Below, piece after piece: positions 23,057 through 47,856 of a DNA stretch of 64,000 nucleotides. Source of the DNA: Terriglobia bacterium (GTDB taxonomy: Bacteria > Acidobacteriota > Polarisedimenticolia > Polarisedimenticolales > JAIQFR01). Within the stretch, counting starts at the first letter, position 1. Every line of letters starts with the position of its first letter. The DNA lies in the NCBI GenBank assembly GCA_963748015.1, contig CAVVHE010000005.1, positions 448,001 to 512,000 of the forward strand, in the 5' to 3' direction. The notes beneath the pieces were generated by a model that saw only the letters and a list, made by a program, of their open reading frames with translations, was not told the DNA's origin and did no database searches. The translations under genes were made by a program, and so were the position numbers.

Positions 23057-23635
23057 TCAGCTCCCCTGGAGCGAGCCGGCGTACCAGCCGACCCCGGGGA
23101 TCGCCGTCCCCGCGCTGTCGATGAGCGCGGCGTTCTGGACCTTGATCTTGTAGGTTCCCGTCGCTTTCACGCGGAACGTCAGTTTCACCAGGGTCTGGGG
23201 CGTCGTGACGTTCACGCCGGCCACCGCTCCGGTGCGGGAGGCGCCCACGACGACCGGCCACACCCCCGTGGCCGTCGCCGTGTAGTTCGGGGCGTTGCCA
23301 CCCTGCTCCAGGAGGGAGCCCGCCGACGGCTGGACGAACTCCACGTTCGCCGGGATGCAGCCGTCCGTCGAGTCGCACGCGACCTCGAACGCCGCGCCGT
23401 TGACCCCGCTCGTCCCGGACACGTTGACCTGCACGGTGACGAGATCGTCGGACACAGCGCTCTGCGCCATCGTGACGGTGAGGGCGCTCGTCGGACTCGG
23501 CGCGCTGGGATCCGGCGCGAAGCTCGCGGTGATGGGGTTCGGCCCCGGGCCGATCGTGCCGCCGCTCGATCCGCCGCCACAGGAAAGGGCGGCAGCCACC
23601 AGGGCAAGGACCGCTAGGTGCATGGCGCGCGTCAT
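23057..23635 (-). CDS. Lipoprotein with cohesin-like domain
   Basis: Lipobox-like ALSC followed by GGGSSGG; cohesin-type pattern VTVQVNV..VNGAAFEV.CD..VEF..AGSLL..VVGASR..TLVKLTFRVKATG. Confidence 0.65.
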   Translation of the reverse strand: MTRAMHLAVLALVAAALSCGGGSSGGTIGPGPNPITASFAPDPSAPSPTSALTVTMAQSAVSDDLVTVQVNVSGTSGVNGAAFEVACDSTDGCIPANVEFVQPSAGSLLEQGGNAPNYTATATGVWPVVVGASRTGAVAGVNVTTPQTLVKLTFRVKATGTYKIKVQNAALIDSAGTAIPGVGWYAGSLQGS

Positions 23636-23666: not shown

Positions 23667-24500
23667 TCAGAAATGGCATACCGGCCGGGGTGTCTTGGCC
23701 ACCCACGCCGAGCCGGACCAGAACTTGCCGAAAGCGCTTCCTACATACGCCAGGTCGCTGCCGTCCACCGCGCCGTCGCCGTCGATGTCCGCGTCGGGCT
23801 GATAGACGCTGTCCCCCGCGTGGCTCCCGAAGACCACGGAGAGGGCGTTCGTGTCCCAGCCGTCGAGCCAGCCGGTCGTGCAGTCGTATCCCTTGTCGAG
23901 ATCGAAGCGCGCGGGGTTGACCTGGACCCCGAAGGCCTGCGTCTTCGAGAGCGTCGTGCCGCTGGGGTTCGTCACGGTGAGCGTGAACCAGCCGACCTCC
24001 GCCGCGCGAATGCCGGGACCCGTGGGCATGACGGTCGCGGCGGCCTGGAGGTGGTTGCAGGCGAGCCGCGTCGGGTTGTCGAGGAACACGTTCGGGTTGT
24101 CGACCGTCACGGTGGCGCCGGGCTCGAAGTTGTTGCCGGTGAGATCGAGGGTGAACTGGGCGCCCTGGATCGCCACCGAGGGGCTCGCGGCCCCGACCAC
24201 GGGCCGTGGATAGGCGGCGACCTCCGCGGAGAACCCCGACTCGCCCACGCTGTTGAACGCCTTCACGGCGAAGTAGTAGGTCGTGCAGTCCGTGAGGGTG
24301 TCGACGGTGGCCCCGGTGGAGTAAACCTCTTTCGGCGTCGATCCGTACTGCCCGGAGGCGGTTCCCCAGTAGACGCGATAGCCGGATGCTCCCGTGGAGG
24401 GATCCCAGGTGAGATCGATGGTTGCCGCGTGGAGCAACACGGGAAGCGAAGCGAGGACGCTCGCTATCCCTACCAGGCGGATGACCCTGCGAACGACCAT
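23667..24500 (-). CDS. Secreted FN3 + IPT/TIG + dockerin-like protein
   Basis: GGAGG RBS before ATG 24500; signal peptide; LTWD..GYRVYWG..TTYYFAVKAFN FN3; Ig-like GNNFEPGA; duplicated Ca-loop FDLDKG..LDGWD / ADIDGDGAVDGSDL..FG. Confidence 0.75.
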   Translation of the reverse strand: MVVRRVIRLVGIASVLASLPVLLHAATIDLTWDPSTGASGYRVYWGTASGQYGSTPKEVYSTGATVDTLTDCTTYYFAVKAFNSVGESGFSAEVAAYPRPVVGAASPSVAIQGAQFTLDLTGNNFEPGATVTVDNPNVFLDNPTRLACNHLQAAATVMPTGPGIRAAEVGWFTLTVTNPSGTTLSKTQAFGVQVNPARFDLDKGYDCTTGWLDGWDTNALSVVFGSHAGDSVYQPDADIDGDGAVDGSDLAYVGSAFGKFWSGSAWVAKTPRPVCHF

Positions 24501-24562: not shown

Positions 24563-25110
24563 TCGAGGTCTTTTCGGGATCGAGCGCGATGCCCAGGCCG
24601 AATAGCCCGATTCGCGTGGCTTTTGGCGCGGATTGGAGGTGTTTCTGGACCTTGCCCCCGCCGGGCAGACATTGGCTTCAGATTTCAAAAGTGCAATTTC
24701 TTCCACGGGCGGGTAATACCGACCTTTCGTTTCCTCCTTCGGGTTCGTGATCCGGGTCCGCCTTCGGCCGCTCGAGCGATCGTCGGGGCTTGCGGGCCTG
24801 CCGTGGTCGGGGTCAGGGACGACCTGATGTCACCCGCGGGCCCCCCATCGGGACTCGATGACACCTCCCCCTCCTCGTCAGATTAGCACGACCCTGCGGC
24901 CGGTGGTGCAACCCTCGCGGGCGACGCTCGGGTGGAGCCGAGAGGCAATGGCCTCGATCCCAGAACCCCCGACAACTCGGGAAAGAGGAGGAATCAGCAA
25001 TTTGCTATGGACAACGCGGGAGTCCGGCGGTACCTCTCTAGTAGGCACGCCAGCGAGCATCCTCGACCGCGGGTCGGTCGCGAAAATAGGCAGTTCGAGA
25101 GCCTGGGCGT

Positions 25111-25126
25111 TGGCATGGGATGGGCT
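25111..25126 (+). promoter_or_regulatory. Possible sigma54 promoter
   Basis: TGGCATG-GGAT-GGGCT (GG-N10-GC) about 155 nt upstream of ATG 25283. Confidence 0.35.
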
Positions 25127-25282
25127 TTCCAACCGGGGTCGCTCATTCAGGACGGGCGGTTCCCCTCGTCGCGTTCGATGAGCAAGTGTGCCCGCGCCCC
25201 CCGCGAGCGAAGGCGCGAGAGAGGCCGGTCTTCCATGGTGAAGCACACGCCGGGGACCTCCCCGGCGAAAAGGAGTGAGCAG

Positions 25283-26101
25283 ATGAGAAAATTCTTCTTT
25301 GGGTTGGCGGTCGCCGGGCTTCTGGCGGCCGGGGGGTCCCTCTCATCGGACGTGCAGGCGTGTCCGTATGCATGCTGCCTGCCGGACAACACCTGCGTGG
25401 AGGTCGAATCTCAGGAGTTCTGTTGGGCACAGGATGGCACTGCCTTCGGCGGCTACTGCGCCGACCTGACCTGCGGCGGGGTTCCCGACGGCTGCCGGAT
25501 GACCGGTGGCGGCGTGGACACGTTCTTCAACTGGAATGGAACGATGGCCACCGGAACGGATGATCCCGACCGCTACACGTTCGGCGGTCAAGTCGGAGCC
25601 CCCACGGCGGCCCAGCCGTCCCCCCACGGCGAGTGGACCCACCACCAGCAGAGCGGGCCGGATGGGTACTTCGTGTTCCACGCCGGCACCTCGAGCGCGC
25701 CTGCGGAAACCAGGATTGCGCGGGTGGACTGCAGTGATCCCGGCTGGTGCAACCCCGCGCGCCAGGCCCCGGACAAGCAGATCGACTATGTGGGTATCGG
25801 GGCGTTCAAGAACATCAGGAAACCTTCCGCCCCGCTGATGGGGGTGATTCCGGGCGTGACCTTCCATTGGTTCGAAGCCCACGTCGAAGACCTGGGCGAA
25901 CCCGGCAAGGGCGGAAAGGTAGAGCCGCCGGCGTCCTACTGCCCGCCCGAGGGCTCGGCTGGAGCGATTGCCGACTGCGACTGCCCCGACTTCTACTCCT
26001 TCACGATTCACGCGGACACGAGTCCCGCCTCGGCAATCATTTACCACGTGCACGGTTACATCACCGGAGGCAACCTGCAGATCCATCCCCCGATTCAGTA
26101 G
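25283..26101 (+). CDS. Secreted Cys-rich hypothetical protein (ACC..DxxC module plus TGGG..TFGG beta-rich domain)
   Basis: AAGGAG RBS, signal peptide MRKFFFGLAVAGLLA..VQA, ACCLPDNTC module, CRMTGGG..YTFGGQVG..GEWTH..GGNLQIH. Confidence 0.7.
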   Translation: MRKFFFGLAVAGLLAAGGSLSSDVQACPYACCLPDNTCVEVESQEFCWAQDGTAFGGYCADLTCGGVPDGCRMTGGGVDTFFNWNGTMATGTDDPDRYTFGGQVGAPTAAQPSPHGEWTHHQQSGPDGYFVFHAGTSSAPAETRIARVDCSDPGWCNPARQAPDKQIDYVGIGAFKNIRKPSAPLMGVIPGVTFHWFEAHVEDLGEPGKGGKVEPPASYCPPEGSAGAIADCDCPDFYSFTIHADTSPASAIIYHVHGYITGGNLQIHPPIQ

Positions 26102-26217: not shown

Positions 26218-26340
26218 CTATTCTAGAGGTTGGGTCTGGCTTCGGGATGCTAGCGTGTTTACGTGTCCTGCGGCAGGATCTACTTCTTGGTCTCGTCCCT
26301 GCATGACGACCCCGGACAACGCGGGAGACGAGGAGGGTGG

Positions 26341-26625
26341 ATGAGCACTGAAAATGGCCTTCCCCAGGAAGTCCGTTCCGAGAACGATAGCGAACTGGAT
26401 CGCGTCGAATCGAGGCGCCGCCTTCTGAAAGCCGGCCTCGTGGCCGTGCCGTTCCTGGTGACCCTCCATGCCCTGCCGGCCCGCGCCGGTGGAGCTCGCG
26501 GACAGGGCTCGCTGGGTGTTTACGGATACGGTGACGACCGCGACAGGGGTGGCGGCCACGGCAAGGGCGGCGGCAAGGGCGGCGGCAGGGGCTCCAGCAA
26601 GACTTCGCAGGGAGACAACCGATAG
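26341..26625 (+). CDS. Small Tat-motif, Gly-rich peptide; candidate RiPP-like precursor (94 aa)
   Basis: GAGGAGG RBS; acidic N-terminus, SRRRLLKAGLVAVPFLVTLHALPARA leader, Gly/Ser/Lys-rich core. Confidence 0.7.
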   Translation: MSTENGLPQEVRSENDSELDRVESRRRLLKAGLVAVPFLVTLHALPARAGGARGQGSLGVYGYGDDRDRGGGHGKGGGKGGGRGSSKTSQGDNR

Positions 26626-26796
26626 GGCCGAGCTCCGGATCCTCGCCGTCGATCTTCCATCCCGAGGACGCAAGCACCTCCTCTCGAAATCCTCGACATC
26701 GCGCGAAGGCGTTGATCCGTCGTGCTCGCGTCGCCTTTCGCGGATGTGGATGAAAGCCGCTTGCCCCGCGACCTCCACAACGCATAACCTGACGAC

Positions 26797-27096
26797 GTGA
26801 TCCACGATCGTGTCGTTTGGCGCGTTGCGTCTCGCACGCCGCTGAGGTGGCGCGGTTGGGACGGCGAGTGGGTGGTGTATCACCCGGATTCCGGCGACAC
26901 GCACCTGCTCGACCCGCTGGCCGCGGAGGCCCTCCGGTCGCTCGAGGCCTCGCCGGCCGGTGCCGCCGCGCTCGTCGAGCGCCTTGCCGGCGGCACGGAC
27001 GCCACCGCCGCCGAGGAGCTTCCTGCGGCTGTCGAGCGTTTGTTGCGCGCCTTCGACGAGGTCGGTTTGATCGAGCCGGTCGATGATCCTGCGTGA
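26797..27096 (+). CDS. PqqD-family peptide chaperone (HPr-rel-A system, RiPP recognition element)
   Basis: WDGEWVVYHPDSGDTHLLDPLAAEAL...LLRAFDEVGLIE pattern. Confidence 0.85.
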   Translation: MIHDRVVWRVASRTPLRWRGWDGEWVVYHPDSGDTHLLDPLAAEALRSLEASPAGAAALVERLAGGTDATAAEELPAAVERLLRAFDEVGLIEPVDDPA

Positions 27097-27994
27097 GCTG
27101 AGCGAGTCCGCGCAGTTCGCTCGCCTGCGGGGCGCAGGGATCGTCCTGGACACCGGGCCGTTCTCCGTACGAATCCGCGGCTCGATTCCCGAGCTGGCGG
27201 GACCGATGCGTCTCCTCTACGGGAACCACACGATCGCGAGCGAGGGAGCGATCGTGGACGCGGACGTTCGCATCGAGCCACCCCCCTCCCTTCGCCGCTG
27301 GTTTGCGCGCCAGGTCGTCGCCTACATCGACGGCGAGCGCCCGTTCCATCCTTTCCCGCGACGACTCGCCTTTCCCATGCTGGAGTGGGTGCTGAACTGG
27401 TGCCTGTTCAACCGGCCGCACCAGTACCTCGTCCTTCACTCGGCCGCCGTGGAGCGCGGCGGGCGCGCCTTGCTCCTGCCGGGGGAGCCGGGGGCCGGCA
27501 AGAGCACGCTCTGCGCCGCACTGATCCTCCGCGGCTGGCGGCTGCTGTCGGACGAGGTCGCGATCGTCCGCCCCTCGACCGGCGAGATCCTCGCTGTTCC
27601 GAGGCCCGTGGCCCTCAAGGAGGAATCGCTCGACGTCATCCGCGCCTTCGAGCCGTCGGCGATGCTCGGCCCCTCGTTCCCCGAGACCCGCAAGGGCACC
27701 GTCACCCATCTCCAGCCACCGGCGGACAGCGTCGACCGATCGCGCGAAACCGCCGCCCCCCGGTGGATCGTCTTCCCGCGGCATGCCGCCGGAGCGCCCG
27801 CGAGCCTGCAGGCGGTCCGAAAGGCCGAGACGCTCCTGCGCGCGGGGAGGAACGGCTTCAACTACAGCTTGCTCGGAGCGGGTGGCTTCGAGAGCCTGGC
27901 CGACGTCGTGAGCGGCTGCGACGGGTACGATCTCGTTTACGGCGATCTCGGCGAGGCCGTGCGACGCCTCGCCGAGCTGGCGAAGGAAGCCTGA
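27083..27994 (+). CDS. HprK-related kinase A
   Basis: LEWVLNWC, LHSAAVE, PGAGKSTL Walker A, GWRLLSDE, PRPVALK, ETRKGTVTH. Confidence 0.85.
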   Translation: MILRELSESAQFARLRGAGIVLDTGPFSVRIRGSIPELAGPMRLLYGNHTIASEGAIVDADVRIEPPPSLRRWFARQVVAYIDGERPFHPFPRRLAFPMLEWVLNWCLFNRPHQYLVLHSAAVERGGRALLLPGEPGAGKSTLCAALILRGWRLLSDEVAIVRPSTGEILAVPRPVALKEESLDVIRAFEPSAMLGPSFPETRKGTVTHLQPPADSVDRSRETAAPRWIVFPRHAAGAPASLQAVRKAETLLRAGRNGFNYSLLGAGGFESLADVVSGCDGYDLVYGDLGEAVRRLAELAKEA

Positions 27995-27997
27995 GGG

Positions 27998-29132
27998 ATG
28001 CGGCCGGAAACCGGCGCGGGCGGCGATCGTTGGGCGGCGGGGCGCGAGATGCGCCTCGACGCCCTCCGCGACCCGCGCTCGCTCGCATCGCTCGGCGAGC
28101 CCGAGTGGGACCGGGTCCTGCGCGGCTACCGGAGAAAGGGGCTGCTCCCCGCGCTCGCGTTCGCCGTGGATTCCGCCGGGCTGTCGAGCGCCCTGCCGCG
28201 CAAGGTGCGGGAGCATCTGCTGGCGGCCCGGCTCGAGGGGGACGCCCACGCGCGGGTGATCCGCTGGGAGGCCAACCGGATCCGGCGCGCGCTTCGCGAC
28301 CTGCGGGTGGACGTCGTCGTCCTCAAGGGGGCCGCGTACGTCCTCGCCGGGCTCCCGCCGGGCCGAGGACGCCTGGTGCAGGACCTCGACGTGATGGTCC
28401 CGAAGGAGAAGCTGCCGGAAGTCGAGCGGGCTCTCCTGGAGGCGGGATGGGAGTGGGCGAACGAGGATCCGTACGACCAGCGCTACTACCGCGCCTGGAT
28501 GCACGAGCTGCCGCCGCTGCGCCACCGCACGCGGGACACCCTGCTCGACGTGCACCACACGATCCTCCCCGAGACGGGACGGTTGAGGCCGGATGCGCGC
28601 AAGCTGTTCGAGCAAGCGCGTCCGATCGGGGAGCCCGGGTTCCTGGTCCTCGCGCCCGTGGACATGGTCCTGCACGCGGCGGCCCACATGCTCTCGGACG
28701 AGACGCTCGGCGGTGCCGTGCGGGACCTCGTCGACCTCGACGCCTTGCTGAGGCACTTCGCGGCCGCGGAACCCGGCTTCTGGGACCGCCTCGTCCCGCG
28801 CGCACGCGAGCTCGATTTGTCGCGACCATTGTTCTACGCGCTGCGTTCCTGCGGCCGGATACTGGGCTCGCAGATTCCCGCCGCGGTGAACGCCGAACTC
28901 CGGCGGGCCGGGAAGCCGCCGTGGCCCGTCACCCGAATAATGGACGCTCTCCTCACGAGGTGCCTTCTGGGGAAAACGTGCGAGCGGGCGCGAGCGGGCA
29001 TCGCGGTCGCCGAGTGCTTCGTCTATATCCGGCGCTCACTGGCTGCGCATGCCGGCGTGGTTGCTGATCCCCCACCTCACCCGGAAGGCGGCGCGGCGCT
29101 ATCGTCGGGAGGACGATGACCCACCCCGGTAG
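27998..29132 (+). CDS. Nucleotidyltransferase-family protein (NTP_transf_5-like), with an apparent 1-nt frameshift near 29031
   Basis: VVLKGAAY..GRLVQDLDVMV, YYRAWMHELPP, DVHH; the conserved-looking tail HWLRMPAWLLIPHLTRKA continues in a shifted frame to TAG 29132. Confidence 0.8.
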
Positions 29133-29422
29133 CCGAAGGACGCATTGACGATCCCCGGATCCTGGGGTATAGACCTCACCAGGACGCTCGCGAGTTGCCG
29201 TGCGGCGCTCGAAGTGCGGGGGTTCTGGGCGGACTTAGGCGCATCGAGGAAGCCGTGGTTCGAATCGACCGAATGTCAGGGCGTGAACTCCCCGCGGGCC
29301 CACGTCGGGCCGCTTGTCGAGGCAGCGTGATGATCCCGGCGATCGGCCGGTGCGCCGCGCTTCGCGGCGACAGTTCCTCCGGTTCACGCGCCAGCAAGGC
29401 TGGGCGGATAAAGGAGCCATCC

Positions 29423-29723
29423 ATGCGAATGCAGGATCGTCTTGCTGCTCTCGACGCTTGCCCTGATCCTCGGGGCGACCTCCTGCCAGCAGCTTCCCGC
29501 ACCCCGCTCCACCGCGCCGGGAGCGCTCCAGACGGAGGACATCGCGTACGACGACGCGATCCCTCTGGACTACGGAACTCTCGTCGGCGTCACTTCTATT
29601 CCGGAAGGTCCGTACACCGCCGGGCTGTGGTTCGAGAAGGCGGACAAGACCATCGTTTTCGTCAAAGTCAACTTCTCTCTCGGAAAGGTCGACAATAGAG
29701 CACTGATCCTCCCGCGTCGATGA
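29423..29723 (+). CDS. Small lipoprotein, hypothetical (5' frameshift suspected)
   Basis: AAGGAG+ATG 29423 is one base out of frame with LLLSTLALILGATSC..AIPLDYGTLVGV..LWFEK. Confidence 0.55.
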
Positions 29724-31844: not shown

Positions 31845-31882
31845 AAAAGAAAAGCGGCCCCCCGGAGAACCGGGGGACCGCC
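31845..31882 (-). terminator. Rho-independent terminator of the FN3 gene
   Basis: Minus strand GGCGGTCCCCCGG-ttct-CCGGGGGGCCGC followed by TTTTCTTTT. Confidence 0.75.
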
Positions 31883-31914
31883 TTGTCCGAGGGGTTCGGT
31901 CTCGGCCTGCGCCG

Positions 31915-33906
31915 CTACCGGACCCTGACGTTCAGTGGCGCCGTCGGCGGGAAGACGCCGACCGGCGTGGCCTGGGCGCGAGCCGAGGAGGAGGCGTTCC
32001 CCGACGCGTCCACGGCGAAGACGCTGTAGTAGTAGGTGGTCCCGTTCGCGAGCCCGGTGTGCAGGTAGCTGTCCGCGCTGCCGGGCGCGGCCGGCTTCTC
32101 GGTAACCGCGAAGCCGTCCGACGGGCTGACCGGGTACTTCCCGTCGGTCCGGTAACGGATGACGGCCTTCGCGAAGTCGGCGTCCGCCGGGTTGGTCCAG
32201 TTGAGCGTGCTCTGCGCGTTGCCGGCCGCCACCGCGAATCCGGTCGGCGCCGCCGGCGGCGTCTGGTCGTCCACCGGTTGCTCGGTCGGCACGAAGAGCG
32301 GATCGTTCGTGAGCAGGACGCGGTCGGCACGCGCCTGGGCCTCGTACCCACCCAGCTCGACGCTGTGCAGTCCTTGCGTCAGCGTGTAGGAGCGGCCGGC
32401 GACCCAGACCCACGCGCCGTTCGAGGAAGCGGTGATGGATGCGCGTGCGGCTCCGTCCACCGACTCGAACCAGGCGTTCGAGGACGCGTTCGCCCCGTAG
32501 AGGCGCACCCAGACGAACCAGGTGCCGGCGGTGGGCACGTTGACGCCGAACGTCGCGGTGCCGGACGGAGAGGCGGCGCTGCCGGTGGCCGTTCCGGACG
32601 GCGTGTCGATGTAGGCGCCGCCGAAGGTCCCGGCCCCGGCCGTCGCGCGGACCGGCGCCACGAGGGTGCCGGCCTCCGCCTCGAACCGCAGGTAACCGTA
32701 CGTGCCGGCGGAGGTGGAGAACGTCTGGTCGGGCGACGAGGTCGTGACGTTGCTCGCCGCGTCGGCGCTCCGCACGTGGTACTGGTAGGTCGTGGACGGC
32801 TCGAGACCCTGCAGGTTCACCGCGTGGCTGGTGACCAGGGCCGTGTCGATCGTCGTCTGCTGGTACCCCGTCTGGCCGGCCTTCCGGTAGAAGACCTGGC
32901 TGTCGGCGTTCTCGTCGGTGGTCCAGGTGATCGACGCGGTCGTCGAAGCAACGGAACCGGACAGCACCGCGGAGACGGCCGGCGCCGTCGTGTCGGGCAC
33001 CGTCGCGAACCCGGTGGCGTGTGTGAAGGTGGCGGCCATCGCGTGATTGGCCAGGTCCATCGCGCCGGAGGCGCCGCCGACGACCTGGATCTTGTAGGTC
33101 TTGCCGGCCGTCAGGCTGGAGGCCGGCGTGATCGTGGCCGTGCGGCCGTCGGCCGAGAGCGACGGCGAGCCGGCGGCCTGCGCCACCGCGTTGACCCCGT
33201 CCATCAGCTTGACGGTCCCCGAGGTGATCGACGTCGCGAGCATCGCCTCGCTGAACGTCACCGCGGGCCTCACCGACGTGGCGACGCCGGTGGCGCCGTC
33301 GGCCGGCGAGGTCGAAACGACCGTGGGAATCGTGGCCGCCTGCACCGTGAAGAGGCTTGCCCCGGTTCCTTTCACCGCGTTCGGATTCGTCACGTCGATG
33401 TTGGTGGAGCCGACGGTTGCGGACGCTCCCACGGTCACGTTGGCGACGAGCTGTGAGCAGGAGGTCACCGTGACCGAGTTCACCGTCACGCCCGTGTTGG
33501 CGAACTGGACCGTCGCGCCGTTCTGGAAGTTCGTTCCGGCGATCGTGAGGTCGAGACGCCGTCCCTGCTCCGCCGCGGAGGGCGCCGAGACCGTCACCAC
33601 CGGTCGCGGCCAGCTCGCCACCTCGGTCGCGTAACCGGAGTCGCCGGCGCTGTTGTAGGCCTTGACCGAGAAGTAGTAGGTGGTGCAGTCCGAGAGGGTG
33701 CTGATCGTCGTTTCGGTGACGTTCCCGACGTCGAGCGGGCTGGCCCCGTACACGCCGGGACTCGTTCCCCAGTACACGCGGTACCCCGTCGCGTTGGCGG
33801 AGGCATCCCAAGCGACGATGACACTCCCCGCCGACGCGGCCGAGACCGCGAGCCCCAGGGCAAAGAGCAGGACCAGGACGAGGCGGCACGGATTCGTGAA
33901 CGACAT
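31915..33906 (-). CDS. Large secreted multi-domain protein: FN3-IPT-Ig(Big_5-like)-FN3-CBM-like-FN3
   Basis: AAGGAGGAG RBS, signal peptide, GYRVYWG/TTYYFSVKAYN, TSPADGATGV..VTFSEAM, ITWTTDE..LEPSTTYQY, FEAEAG, LANGTTYYYSVFA. Confidence 0.8.
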   Translation of the reverse strand: MSFTNPCRLVLVLLFALGLAVSAASAGSVIVAWDASANATGYRVYWGTSPGVYGASPLDVGNVTETTISTLSDCTTYYFSVKAYNSAGDSGYATEVASWPRPVVTVSAPSAAEQGRRLDLTIAGTNFQNGATVQFANTGVTVNSVTVTSCSQLVANVTVGASATVGSTNIDVTNPNAVKGTGASLFTVQAATIPTVVSTSPADGATGVATSVRPAVTFSEAMLATSITSGTVKLMDGVNAVAQAAGSPSLSADGRTATITPASSLTAGKTYKIQVVGGASGAMDLANHAMAATFTHATGFATVPDTTAPAVSAVLSGSVASTTASITWTTDENADSQVFYRKAGQTGYQQTTIDTALVTSHAVNLQGLEPSTTYQYHVRSADAASNVTTSSPDQTFSTSAGTYGYLRFEAEAGTLVAPVRATAGAGTFGGAYIDTPSGTATGSAASPSGTATFGVNVPTAGTWFVWVRLYGANASSNAWFESVDGAARASITASSNGAWVWVAGRSYTLTQGLHSVELGGYEAQARADRVLLTNDPLFVPTEQPVDDQTPPAAPTGFAVAAGNAQSTLNWTNPADADFAKAVIRYRTDGKYPVSPSDGFAVTEKPAAPGSADSYLHTGLANGTTYYYSVFAVDASGNASSSARAQATPVGVFPPTAPLNVRVR

Positions 33907-40883: not shown

Positions 40884-40906
40884 GACGCTCCCCTACTTCC
40901 GCTCGG

Positions 40907-41987
40907 TCAACGAAGCCCAAGCAGATTCTCGTAGCGCTCGATCTGGGCCATCGTGACCGCGCGAAGGTCCCGGCCCTCGCGATGCGCCCGGTACCACTCG
41001 ACGATCCAGGGAATCGCTTCCTCGAGCCGCAGGCGCGGCGACCACTCTAGGCGCGACCGGGCCTTCGAGATGTCCAGCTTGAGGAGATGGGCTTCGTGGG
41101 GATGCGCTCCCCCGTCGGTCTCCCAGCGCGCCCCCTCGCCCCACATCGTCGAGATGCGCTCGACGATCCAGGACACGGGGCGGGCGTCCTCCTCGTACGG
41201 GCCGAAGTTCCACCCCTCCGCGAACGCCGTTCCGTCGGCGTGCAGGCTCTCCGCGAGCGACAGGTAGCCGCGGAGCGCTTCCAGCACGAACTGCCAGGGC
41301 CGGACGGCGTGCGGGTTCCGGATGCGCACCGGCTTGCCGGCGGCGAAGGACCGCATGATGTCCGGGATGAGCTGGTCCTGGGTCCAGTCGCCGCCGCCGA
41401 CGACGTTGCCCGCCCGGCCGGTGGCTACCGCGATGCCCGGCTGCGCCGCCCCCTCGCCGGTGAAGTACGACTGCCGGTAGGCGGCGGTGACCAGCTCGGA
41501 GCAGGCCTTGCTGTTCGAGTACGGATCGTGCCCGCCCAGGGGCTCCGACTCCCGGTAGCCCCACACCTGGTTCCGGTTCTCGTAGCACTTGTCGCTGGTG
41601 ACGTTCACCACGACGCAAGGCCTTCCGACCTCGCCGCAGCGCCTCCAGGAGGTGGACCGTGCCCATCACGTTGGTCGCGTAGGTCTCGACCGGGTGCTCG
41701 TAGGAGTATCGGACGACCGACTGGGCCGCCATGTGGATCACGATCTCGGGCCGCGCCGCGGCCACGGCGCGCTTCAGGGCGTCGAGGTCGCGCACGTCGC
41801 CGTTGACGGACTCGATCCCCCTTGCGACGCCCGCGAGCTCGAACAGGCTCGGGTCCGTCGGGGGAGGGAGGGCGTAGCCGGTCACTTCCGCTCCCAGCGA
41901 CTCGAGCCAGAGAGAGAGCCAGCTCCCCTTGAAGCCCGTGTGACCGGTCAGCAGGACGCGCTTTCCCTTCCAGTAACTTCGGTTCAT
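40907..41987 (-). CDS. rfbG: CDP-glucose 4,6-dehydratase, frameshifted near 41620-41640
   Basis: TGHTGFKGSWL, HMAAQSVV, then VTSDKCYEN, DPYSNSK, RAGNVVGGGD, RPWQ in a second frame. Confidence 0.9.
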
Positions 41988-42210
41988 CGTGGGTGTCGCG
42001 ACCTCATCAGGAGGGCGGGCCCGAGCCGCCCGCCGCGGGTGGCTGCGCACTAGTCCTCGGTGAGAGCCGCCCGCGCGATCATATCGCAATTTTCGTGCAA
42101 CTTCCCGGGTGTCTCATCGGCCCGGCGGGCCTCGACTTGAGCCGCCGGAGTACGCGGGAGCTTTCTGCCCGCGAAAGGAGACGCTCGGCCTTCGGGGAGC
42201 CCGAGGCTCG

Positions 42211-47076: not shown

Positions 47077-47856
47077 CTACCGGTTTCCCGCCTCGAAGGT
47101 TTTCCAACCGTAGCTCGACGAGGTGACACCGCCCCTATCGGTAGGCCAGAATCCCACCCCGGGTTGTCCATCGGTCCATGTCGAATTGGATGGGCCGGTG
47201 AGCACGAGCGAGCCATTCCTGTATACCTTGATGACGCTGCCGATGATCTCGACCCGCAGCACATCGCCGTCGACCGCCGGTGCAATCGTGGTACTGGCAA
47301 GGGACGTGTAGTCCCCGAGCGGGCCGTTCCAGCGGATAATCGCGATTTCGCCGTTCGTCTGACCGCCCCCTCCCCACAGCACTTCGTAGCCGCGCGCGTT
47401 GTGCGCGGTGATCTTGAATCGGAGCAGAAGCTCGATCTCGTGGCTCCCGCTTGGCGCGTAGCCTGCCGCGCGGTACACGGTCCCCTGTGCGTACTGGTCG
47501 GCTGCGAACGTGGTGTTCAGGACCGCGATGTCGTCGTTGTAGCTGCTGACGATCACCGCCCCGTAGGCTCTGCCGGGTATCGTCTGCACGTTGTTCCAGT
47601 CGAGTCCGACCGTCTTGCCGTTGATCCAATTCCCACCCTCGGAGATCGGATTCTCCGCGAGCGGGAAACCCGTGCCATAGAAATCATGGGAATTGCCGTC
47701 CGGGAGGCTTAGGATTCTGACATTCCTGGGGGCTTCCGGGGTCTGCGAAATCGCTGGTGATCCGGAACCCAAGGCAATTGTCAGGAGCAAAACGGATCTG
47801 GTAATGCAGTTTGCCAGATACCGGTGTGTGGGTTGGGGAGAATTCATGATCTCCAC
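47077..47856 (-). CDS. Secreted beta-sandwich (concanavalin/lectin-like) protein with an N-terminal PEAPRNVRIL peptide
   Basis: Signal peptide, ENPISEGGNW, ADQYAQG, GDVLRVEIIG..VYRNG, GQPGVGF. Confidence 0.65.
   Translation of the reverse strand: MEIMNSPQPTHRYLANCITRSVLLLTIALGSGSPAISQTPEAPRNVRILSLPDGNSHDFYGTGFPLAENPISEGGNWINGKTVGLDWNNVQTIPGRAYGAVIVSSYNDDIAVLNTTFAADQYAQGTVYRAAGYAPSGSHEIELLLRFKITAHNARGYEVLWGGGGQTNGEIAIIRWNGPLGDYTSLASTTIAPAVDGDVLRVEIIGSVIKVYRNGSLVLTGPSNSTWTDGQPGVGFWPTDRGGVTSSSYGWKTFEAGNR

Follow-up and report, generated by a model that had tools for sequence, protein, structure and literature searches.

A predicted split fibronectin type III tag and acceptor pair for surface attachment in Polarisedimenticolales

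The window, the 64,000-nucleotide stretch of Terriglobia bacterium DNA analyzed here, contains an exopolysaccharide region that includes an HPr-rel-A cassette, sugar-nucleotide genes and a gene for a flippase. In this region lie two genes 7 kb apart, one for a protein of 663 amino acids ending in a short orphan tail and the other for an adaptor described below. The first open reading frame (31915 to 33906, reverse strand) translates to 663 residues and a stop. Its six domains run in the order fibronectin type III (FN3) domain without strand A (hereafter dA), IPT, Big_5, FN3, CBM35/6-like domain and FN3, as follows.

33829..33906, reverse strand: Sec signal peptide, residues 1-26, with probable A-x-A|G cleavage (pattern judged by eye)
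33607..33828, reverse strand: dA acceptor, an FN3 missing strand A, residues 27-100 with invariant Cys74 (profile match, homolog alignment, AlphaFold model, fold alignment)
33337..33606, reverse strand: IPT/TIG-like domain, residues 101-190, Cys150 invariant (Pfam TIG E 0.007; NF058597 above cut-off)
33007..33336, reverse strand: Big_5 Ig-like domain, residues 191-300 (PF13205 E 1.7e-16)
32710..32997, reverse strand: complete FN3, Pur_ac_phosph_N-like, residues 304-399 (PF16656; 4lsd Z 13.5)
32293..32703, reverse strand: CBM35/CBM6-like jelly roll, residues 402-538 (3zm8 Z 16.6, rmsd 2.1, 125 aligned; 2w47 Z 14.2)
31960..32271, reverse strand: second complete FN3, strand A included, residues 546-649 (homolog alignment; model; 7jgu Z 12.1)
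31915..31959, reverse strand: orphan strand-A tail, residues 650-663, and stop (translation, alignment; sole partner-chain interface in the complex prediction)
31851..31884, reverse strand: intrinsic-terminator-like hairpin, 15 pairs and a U-run (consensus match only)

The hairpin lying 3' of the reading frame indicates that the C-terminal end of the protein is real, and a truncation artefact was ruled out by this terminator together with full-length homologs of 663 amino acids. Genes apparently split over two frames occur in the window (40893-42089 and 29195-29723) and at G000:C5:515019-519929 and resemble the indel errors of long-read assembly; judged by homolog length, the 663-residue frame is intact. 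The invariant cysteines of the IPT and dA domains (Cys150 and Cys74) are probably linked by a disulfide. A related-locus scan of genome contigs returned distant single-domain matches only.

FN3 domains are seven-stranded sandwiches (A-B-E / C'-C-F-G) with a tryptophan in strand B and a tyrosine in strand F. In dA the fold and motifs are present for strands B to G, and the chain of the domain itself supplies no strand A, the mature protein beginning two residues before strand B. The preliminary description had claimed such a start after the signal peptide, and both homolog and fold alignments bear it out. The cleavage site has alanine at -1 in 111 of 117 aligned homolog rows and glycine at +1 in 115 of them, giving the homologs a type I signal (A-x-A|G) without a lipobox cysteine. 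The first residue in the AlphaFold model of a 178-residue relative pairs with residue 20 in each of three solved FN3 domains (7jgu, 2h45 and 3mpc; for 7jgu Z 9.2, rmsd 1.8, 72 aligned). The complete last FN3 of the 663-residue protein (residues 546-649), in contrast, aligns from residue 2 of 7jgu and keeps its own strand A. AlphaFold models dA without strand A at a pLDDT of 92-96, a confidence that says nothing about stability. A Pfam fn3 match can stretch over signal-peptide residues 19-26 of the 663-residue protein; conservation in this stretch of the alignment is low (the top residue has a mean share of 0.38, versus 0.76 in the dA domain), and the signal peptide was ruled out as strand A on this basis. 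Among the PDB sequence and fold matches listed there was no solved split FN3, only generic FN3, IPT and CBM matches.

At the opposite end, the claim that the protein closes with a strand-A-like peptide and no following domain was upheld by the stop codon, the terminator and the homologs, since 112 of the best 120 of 414 homologs match a regex for a strand-A tail. By eye, two of the eight that miss it in this best-120 set are tail variants, and some of the 120 are labelled Candidatus Polarisedimenticolaceae or Acidobacteriota by their source. In the homolog alignment the tail is conserved (0.63) almost as well as the folded domains, it persists through loss and gain of internal domains over mature lengths of 178 to 647 residues, and many tails share a conserved basic end. 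When intact repeats from the same FN3 subfamily (196 repeats) were scored on a tail matrix, 17% of the segments preceding strand B reached at least 8, against 3% of control windows (medians 1.7 and -5.1). Giant tandem-FN3 proteins dominated a search at 50% representatives and served only as a strand-A reference, and a search for shorter homologs with residues 27-100 gave four candidates, none useful.

The two halves of this arrangement recur, and also come apart, among relatives. Across 39 genomes of the order Polarisedimenticolales, whose kinship limits the weight of the counts, the dA profile matches 38 at E<=0.001. The strongest of these matches led to 71 surrounding loci in 36 genomes. They encode 77 proteins with a dA domain, which split into 38 adaptors of dA-IPT-dockerin-like architecture (one frameshifted) and 39 others, consisting of dA-IPT and none to four further domains. 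The tail is absent from all 37 intact dockerin-type adaptors (best tail score 1.6), whereas 34 of the 39 others score above 13 on a matrix trained on the tails of those same 34 proteins. The remaining five non-adaptors comprise one frameshifted protein with the tail in the next frame, three tail-less proteins and one ambiguous case. Both classes are present in 31 of the 36 genomes. Three genomes contain, besides a tailed copy, a tail-less dA-IPT-FN3-CBM-FN3 paralog (L078, L102 and L112). The window carries one adaptor and, directly downstream, a cohesin gene.

23667..24500, reverse strand: adaptor with signal peptide, dA-FN3, IPT and dockerin-like domain, no tail; the start is probably the second Met
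23057..23635, reverse strand: predicted cohesin lipoprotein, Cys19, Gly/Ser linker (Pfam Cohesin E 3.9e-4)

For 36 of the 38 adaptors the gene immediately downstream, on the same strand, encodes a cohesin, the other two adaptors each being the first of two in tandem, and 27 of the 36 cohesin proteins match a lipobox regex. The cohesins score above the Pfam cut-off in 35 of 35 scanned relatives, and the window copy falls below it (21.1 versus 24.1 bits). In the dockerin-like domain of the adaptors the second repeat is conserved and the first degenerate; Dockerin_1 matches at E<=0.01 in seven of 38, a weak identity, and dockerin neighbors of the adaptor domain in the Atlas at 0.85 are leads. The locus cohesin is single, and other cohesin- and dockerin-like reading frames occur elsewhere in the genome. 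On this evidence a cohesin-dockerin pairing is likely to hold the adaptor.

Several further reading frames touch on this subject. A secretin (G000:C4:596855-599293, forward strand) also matches the cohesin profile near its C-terminus and could offer a second docking site for the dockerin-like adaptor. The third dA protein of the genome (G000:C4:704072-704800, forward strand; locus L166) has neither IPT nor tail and ends in a small domain that resembles, by eye, the C-terminal domain of several other secreted proteins and is possibly another anchor. An ORF at 24932-26101 (forward strand), divergent from the adaptor gene, matches no family in Pfam or NCBIfam; its product has several cysteines and a stretch that resembles a signal.

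The tail also occurs without dA. Four other reading frames of the genome end in the same tail type and lack dA, encoding a Kelch propeller, a beta-helix protein and two proteins without a Pfam family, and three of the four lie 3-14 kb beyond the window end. The strict regex with five matches (0.03 expected) was written after the matches had been seen and so provides no independent evidence. With a stricter pattern, made for the commoner form of the tail, 30 matches turned up in 20 of the 39 genomes of the order, against one for the reversed control; 24 of the 30 lie at most six residues from the stop. Orthologs account for 13 of these 24, and the remaining 11 belong to other proteins, of about seven kinds, that lack an N-terminal dA. 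All nine refetched tail-only proteins have a signal-like start by a hydrophobicity rule, and no glycoside hydrolase family matched in the 15 candidate cargo proteins scanned. A looser pattern performed at control level both outside the order (one clear cargo among 30 loci) and within it (one real cargo among eight checked), and the cargo list is therefore incomplete and cargo outside the order barely shown. Three tiny secreted proteins of 102-129 amino acids without a Pfam family (L161:3489-3794, L162:5139-5525 and L163:1472-1819) share an aromatic motif, a Pro-rich linker and the tail. A candidate tag at the other end of the chain lies within the ORF at 47077-47856.

47710..47745, reverse strand: candidate N-terminal tag, a strand-A-like peptide with which the mature chain of a secreted protein begins

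This peptide is absent from two paralogs in the genome that are 81-84% identical over the remainder, and no relatives of the protein were found in 100 other genomes of the class.

Acceptors were also recovered beyond the order. The dA profile picked out 135 short proteins from other sources, many of them on short contigs, and the best 120 were sorted automatically, a procedure that mis-sorted a few. Among these 120, 58 are lipoprotein-like and end at strand G and 21 are dA plus tail, the remainder being seven with a C-terminal PWL motif (one false), ten ending at G without a visible lipobox, three fragments and 21 others. Many of the lipoproteins consist of a linker and dA only. In a phylum sample the dA profile matches 27 of 201 genomes at 1e-12, and other families of the phylum hold dA-dockerin fusions without IPT and proteins of the form dA-FN3n-tail. 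No recognised tail or anchor was found in the long dA-headed proteins P0125, P0126, P0164, L197 and L199. The PWL-leucine-rich end of the single-domain dA proteins P0296, P0321, P0333, P0339, P0343 and P0347 is a candidate for a further anchor or sorting signal. In P0305 the signal peptide and dA start weakly match NF052318 of NCBIfam (E 3.5e-4, below cut-off), which represents the N-terminal part of the long-form T9SS sortase PorU.

Structure prediction places the tail in the acceptor. When the dA-IPT part of the adaptor was modeled with the last FN3 and tail of the 663-residue protein, the complex scored 0.64 and the best of three controls 0.00; the mark on this score is reached by 116 of 157 solved complexes and two of 215 mismatched pairs, a calibration that is rough for user-made alignments. 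The runs agree in at least 98% of contacts with a partner pLDDT of at least 91, and only the last 13 residues (651-663) are predicted to contact the adaptor, along strands B, F and G, with tail V660 on adaptor Trp7 and Val54. The complex passes the mark, but possibly on account of its resemblance to intact FN3 structures; since similarity alone can carry two parts of a familiar fold past it, the prediction supports fit and not binding. Covariation between tail and dA was not detected by mutual information, the signal being dominated by shifts within the tail (9 of 1050 dA cells above z 3, versus 2-6 for other domains). A short BC loop accompanies the Pro-type tail in one clade, and given its exceptions and partly mis-anchored labels we make no claim of co-evolution. 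The original suggestion that the tail completes the strand-A-less FN3 thus gains support from the predicted fit to the adaptor groove and from comparative genomics, and we consider it very probable that the tail fills a dA groove.

A different reading, which we judge unlikely, takes the tail for a terminal export or sorting signal serving other machinery and dA for a six-stranded FN3 variant stable alone. The secreted appearance of the tagged proteins with a visible start, a conserved basic end that suits a signal, the secretins of the genome, the long dA-headed proteins without tails and the confident dA models at pLDDT 92-96, silent as these are on stability, would all be accommodated, but such a signal is hard to square with a tail that is in strand-A register and predicted in the groove, with the similar peptide at the N-terminus of ORF 47077-47856, or with the many lipoproteins made of linker and dA alone.

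If the tail does fill a groove, it could be its own or that of another chain. The two termini of an FN3 domain sit at opposite ends, so a tail on a joint of native length after strand G cannot reach its own groove. Measured on our own scale as G-to-A spacing, native tandem FN3 joints are 13-18 residues long in 139 of 144 cases, and six single-domain relatives have this same spacing and so cannot fold back. Another single-domain group, with a spacing of 25-29 residues and 8-12 spare linker residues, might self-complement. The tail forms no strand in the AlphaFold monomer model of the 178-residue relative, and a two-residue bridge appears at residues 661-662 in that of the 663-residue protein; tail pLDDT is no guide to docked versus free, at 79-83 for the 663-residue protein and 81-84 for the relative. 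This bridge, together with the length of six domains, may make possible a ring in which the protein's own tail completes its own first domain as a stable monomer or latent state, without a chain. We nevertheless hold such closure to be improbable as an account of the system: a ring has no application to tail-less adaptors, tail-only cargo, lipoprotein acceptors, the 178-residue members or the single-domain members without slack. The tail-less acceptors and tail-only cargo cannot complement themselves, which favors docking in trans, and we regard this as probable. The alternatives first offered, a closed ring or a homopolymer, were therefore framed too narrowly, although the anatomy of the 663-residue protein does allow a chain. 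FN3 repeats shuffle readily, and the regex or tail is lacking in eight of the best 120 of 414 homologs and five of 39 loci, but a functionless leftover of recombination at the A/B boundary is very improbable for a tail conserved nearly as well as folded domains, kept across architectures and on unrelated proteins, and excluded from every adaptor.

We propose that the tail is a portable docking tag and dA its acceptor, most likely serving to attach secreted proteins to the cell surface through a binding that is so far predicted. In this model, the mature chain, as its sequence shows, is cut by signal cleavage so that its first FN3 has a vacant groove in place of strand A, and the last 13 tail residues are predicted to enter such a groove as strand A, including that of a different gene product, the adaptor. 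Binding of the dockerin-like domain to the neighboring cohesin lipoprotein would tether the acceptor to the membrane, and tail-only proteins (beta-helix, Kelch and other propellers) would clip on as terminal cargo. With both groove and tail, the 663-residue protein would extend a chain that tail-only proteins would terminate. In the least certain steps one or more copies of it may be placed between the anchor and the cargo as Ig/FN3 spacers, each subunit adding one carbohydrate-binding module in an exopolysaccharide-rich surface layer; for chains of more than two subunits in vivo we see even odds. The system is presumably surface-exposed, and secretins are present in the genome. Taken as a whole, this chaperone-free, cohesin-dockerin-anchored arrangement seems to us fairly likely.

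Cellulosomes use cohesin-dockerin anchoring, in which glycoside hydrolases bearing dockerins with two calcium-binding repeats assemble on a multi-cohesin scaffoldin. The system proposed here shares with them a cohesin on a cell-bound protein, a dockerin-like partner, a CBM and candidate glycan-active cargo, whereas its locus has one cohesin on a diderm lipoprotein in place of a scaffoldin, and its cargo bears a strand of 12-14 residues in place of a dockerin. In SpyTag/SpyCatcher, an engineered split-domain tag, a short strand on one protein completes a truncated beta-sandwich on another; the present pair is natural, FN3-based and presumably non-covalent. In the type V pili of Bacteroidia (FimA, Mfa1), each groove is filled by a donor strand from the C-terminus of a neighboring subunit (PMC13655056). 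A C-terminal donor strand (here predicted in trans), lipoprotein-based anchoring (here probable) and some donor-less subunits are common to both. The pilins, however, have two transthyretin-like domains in place of the FN3 fold, and the 663-residue extender has neither lipobox nor internal protease site, its groove being opened by signal cleavage. Here the base would be formed by anchored acceptors and the tip by cargo that has only a tail, whereas the tip pilins of type V pili are described as having no donor. In TasA fibers an incomplete beta-sandwich is completed by a strand of another chain, with no usher needed (PMC10903470). This principle is common to chaperone-usher pili, TasA and the proposed FN3 pair; in the first two an N-terminal donor joins subunits that are pilins homologous to one another, whereas here the donor is mostly C-terminal and on unrelated proteins. 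Furthermore, chaperone-usher pilins lack the last strand and dA the first. The donor-strand complementation of the CPR Pam pilus is also similar (PMC13278184). Membership of the chaperone-usher or type V families, to which the preliminary description had likened the protein, does not hold: no usher (PF00577) matched in the 100% complete genome (E. coli control positive) and no FimA family (PF06321) matched in the genome (Bacteroides control positive) or in the Pfam scan of the 663-residue protein.

More broadly, and with slightly less than even confidence, split FN3 domains may be a general way of surface anchoring and assembly in uncultured bacteria, with a tag strand of 12-14 residues on unrelated secreted proteins, interchangeable dA anchors (cohesin-dockerin, direct lipidation or other C-terminal motifs) and two-ended subunits that self-extend without chaperone or protease into CBM-studded, cargo-capped fibers. 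We found no description of a natural split FN3 tag in the full-text literature searched. If correct, the model would place a further surface-attachment mechanism beside sortase, SLH, T9SS and cohesin-dockerin systems, extend donor-strand completion from pilin stacking to the recruitment of unrelated cargo, and suggest a role for many hypothetical proteins annotated as 'fibronectin type III domain-containing'. Protein engineering would also gain a compact tag and acceptor of natural origin.

The HPr-rel-A cassette of the window (26263-29119, forward strand) comprises a PqqD-family chaperone (TIGR04353), the HprK-related kinase A (TIGR04352) and a nucleotidyltransferase. It is preceded by a 120-residue ORF, arginine-rich with a twin-arginine-like motif and a Gly-rich end, which is possibly a substrate peptide.
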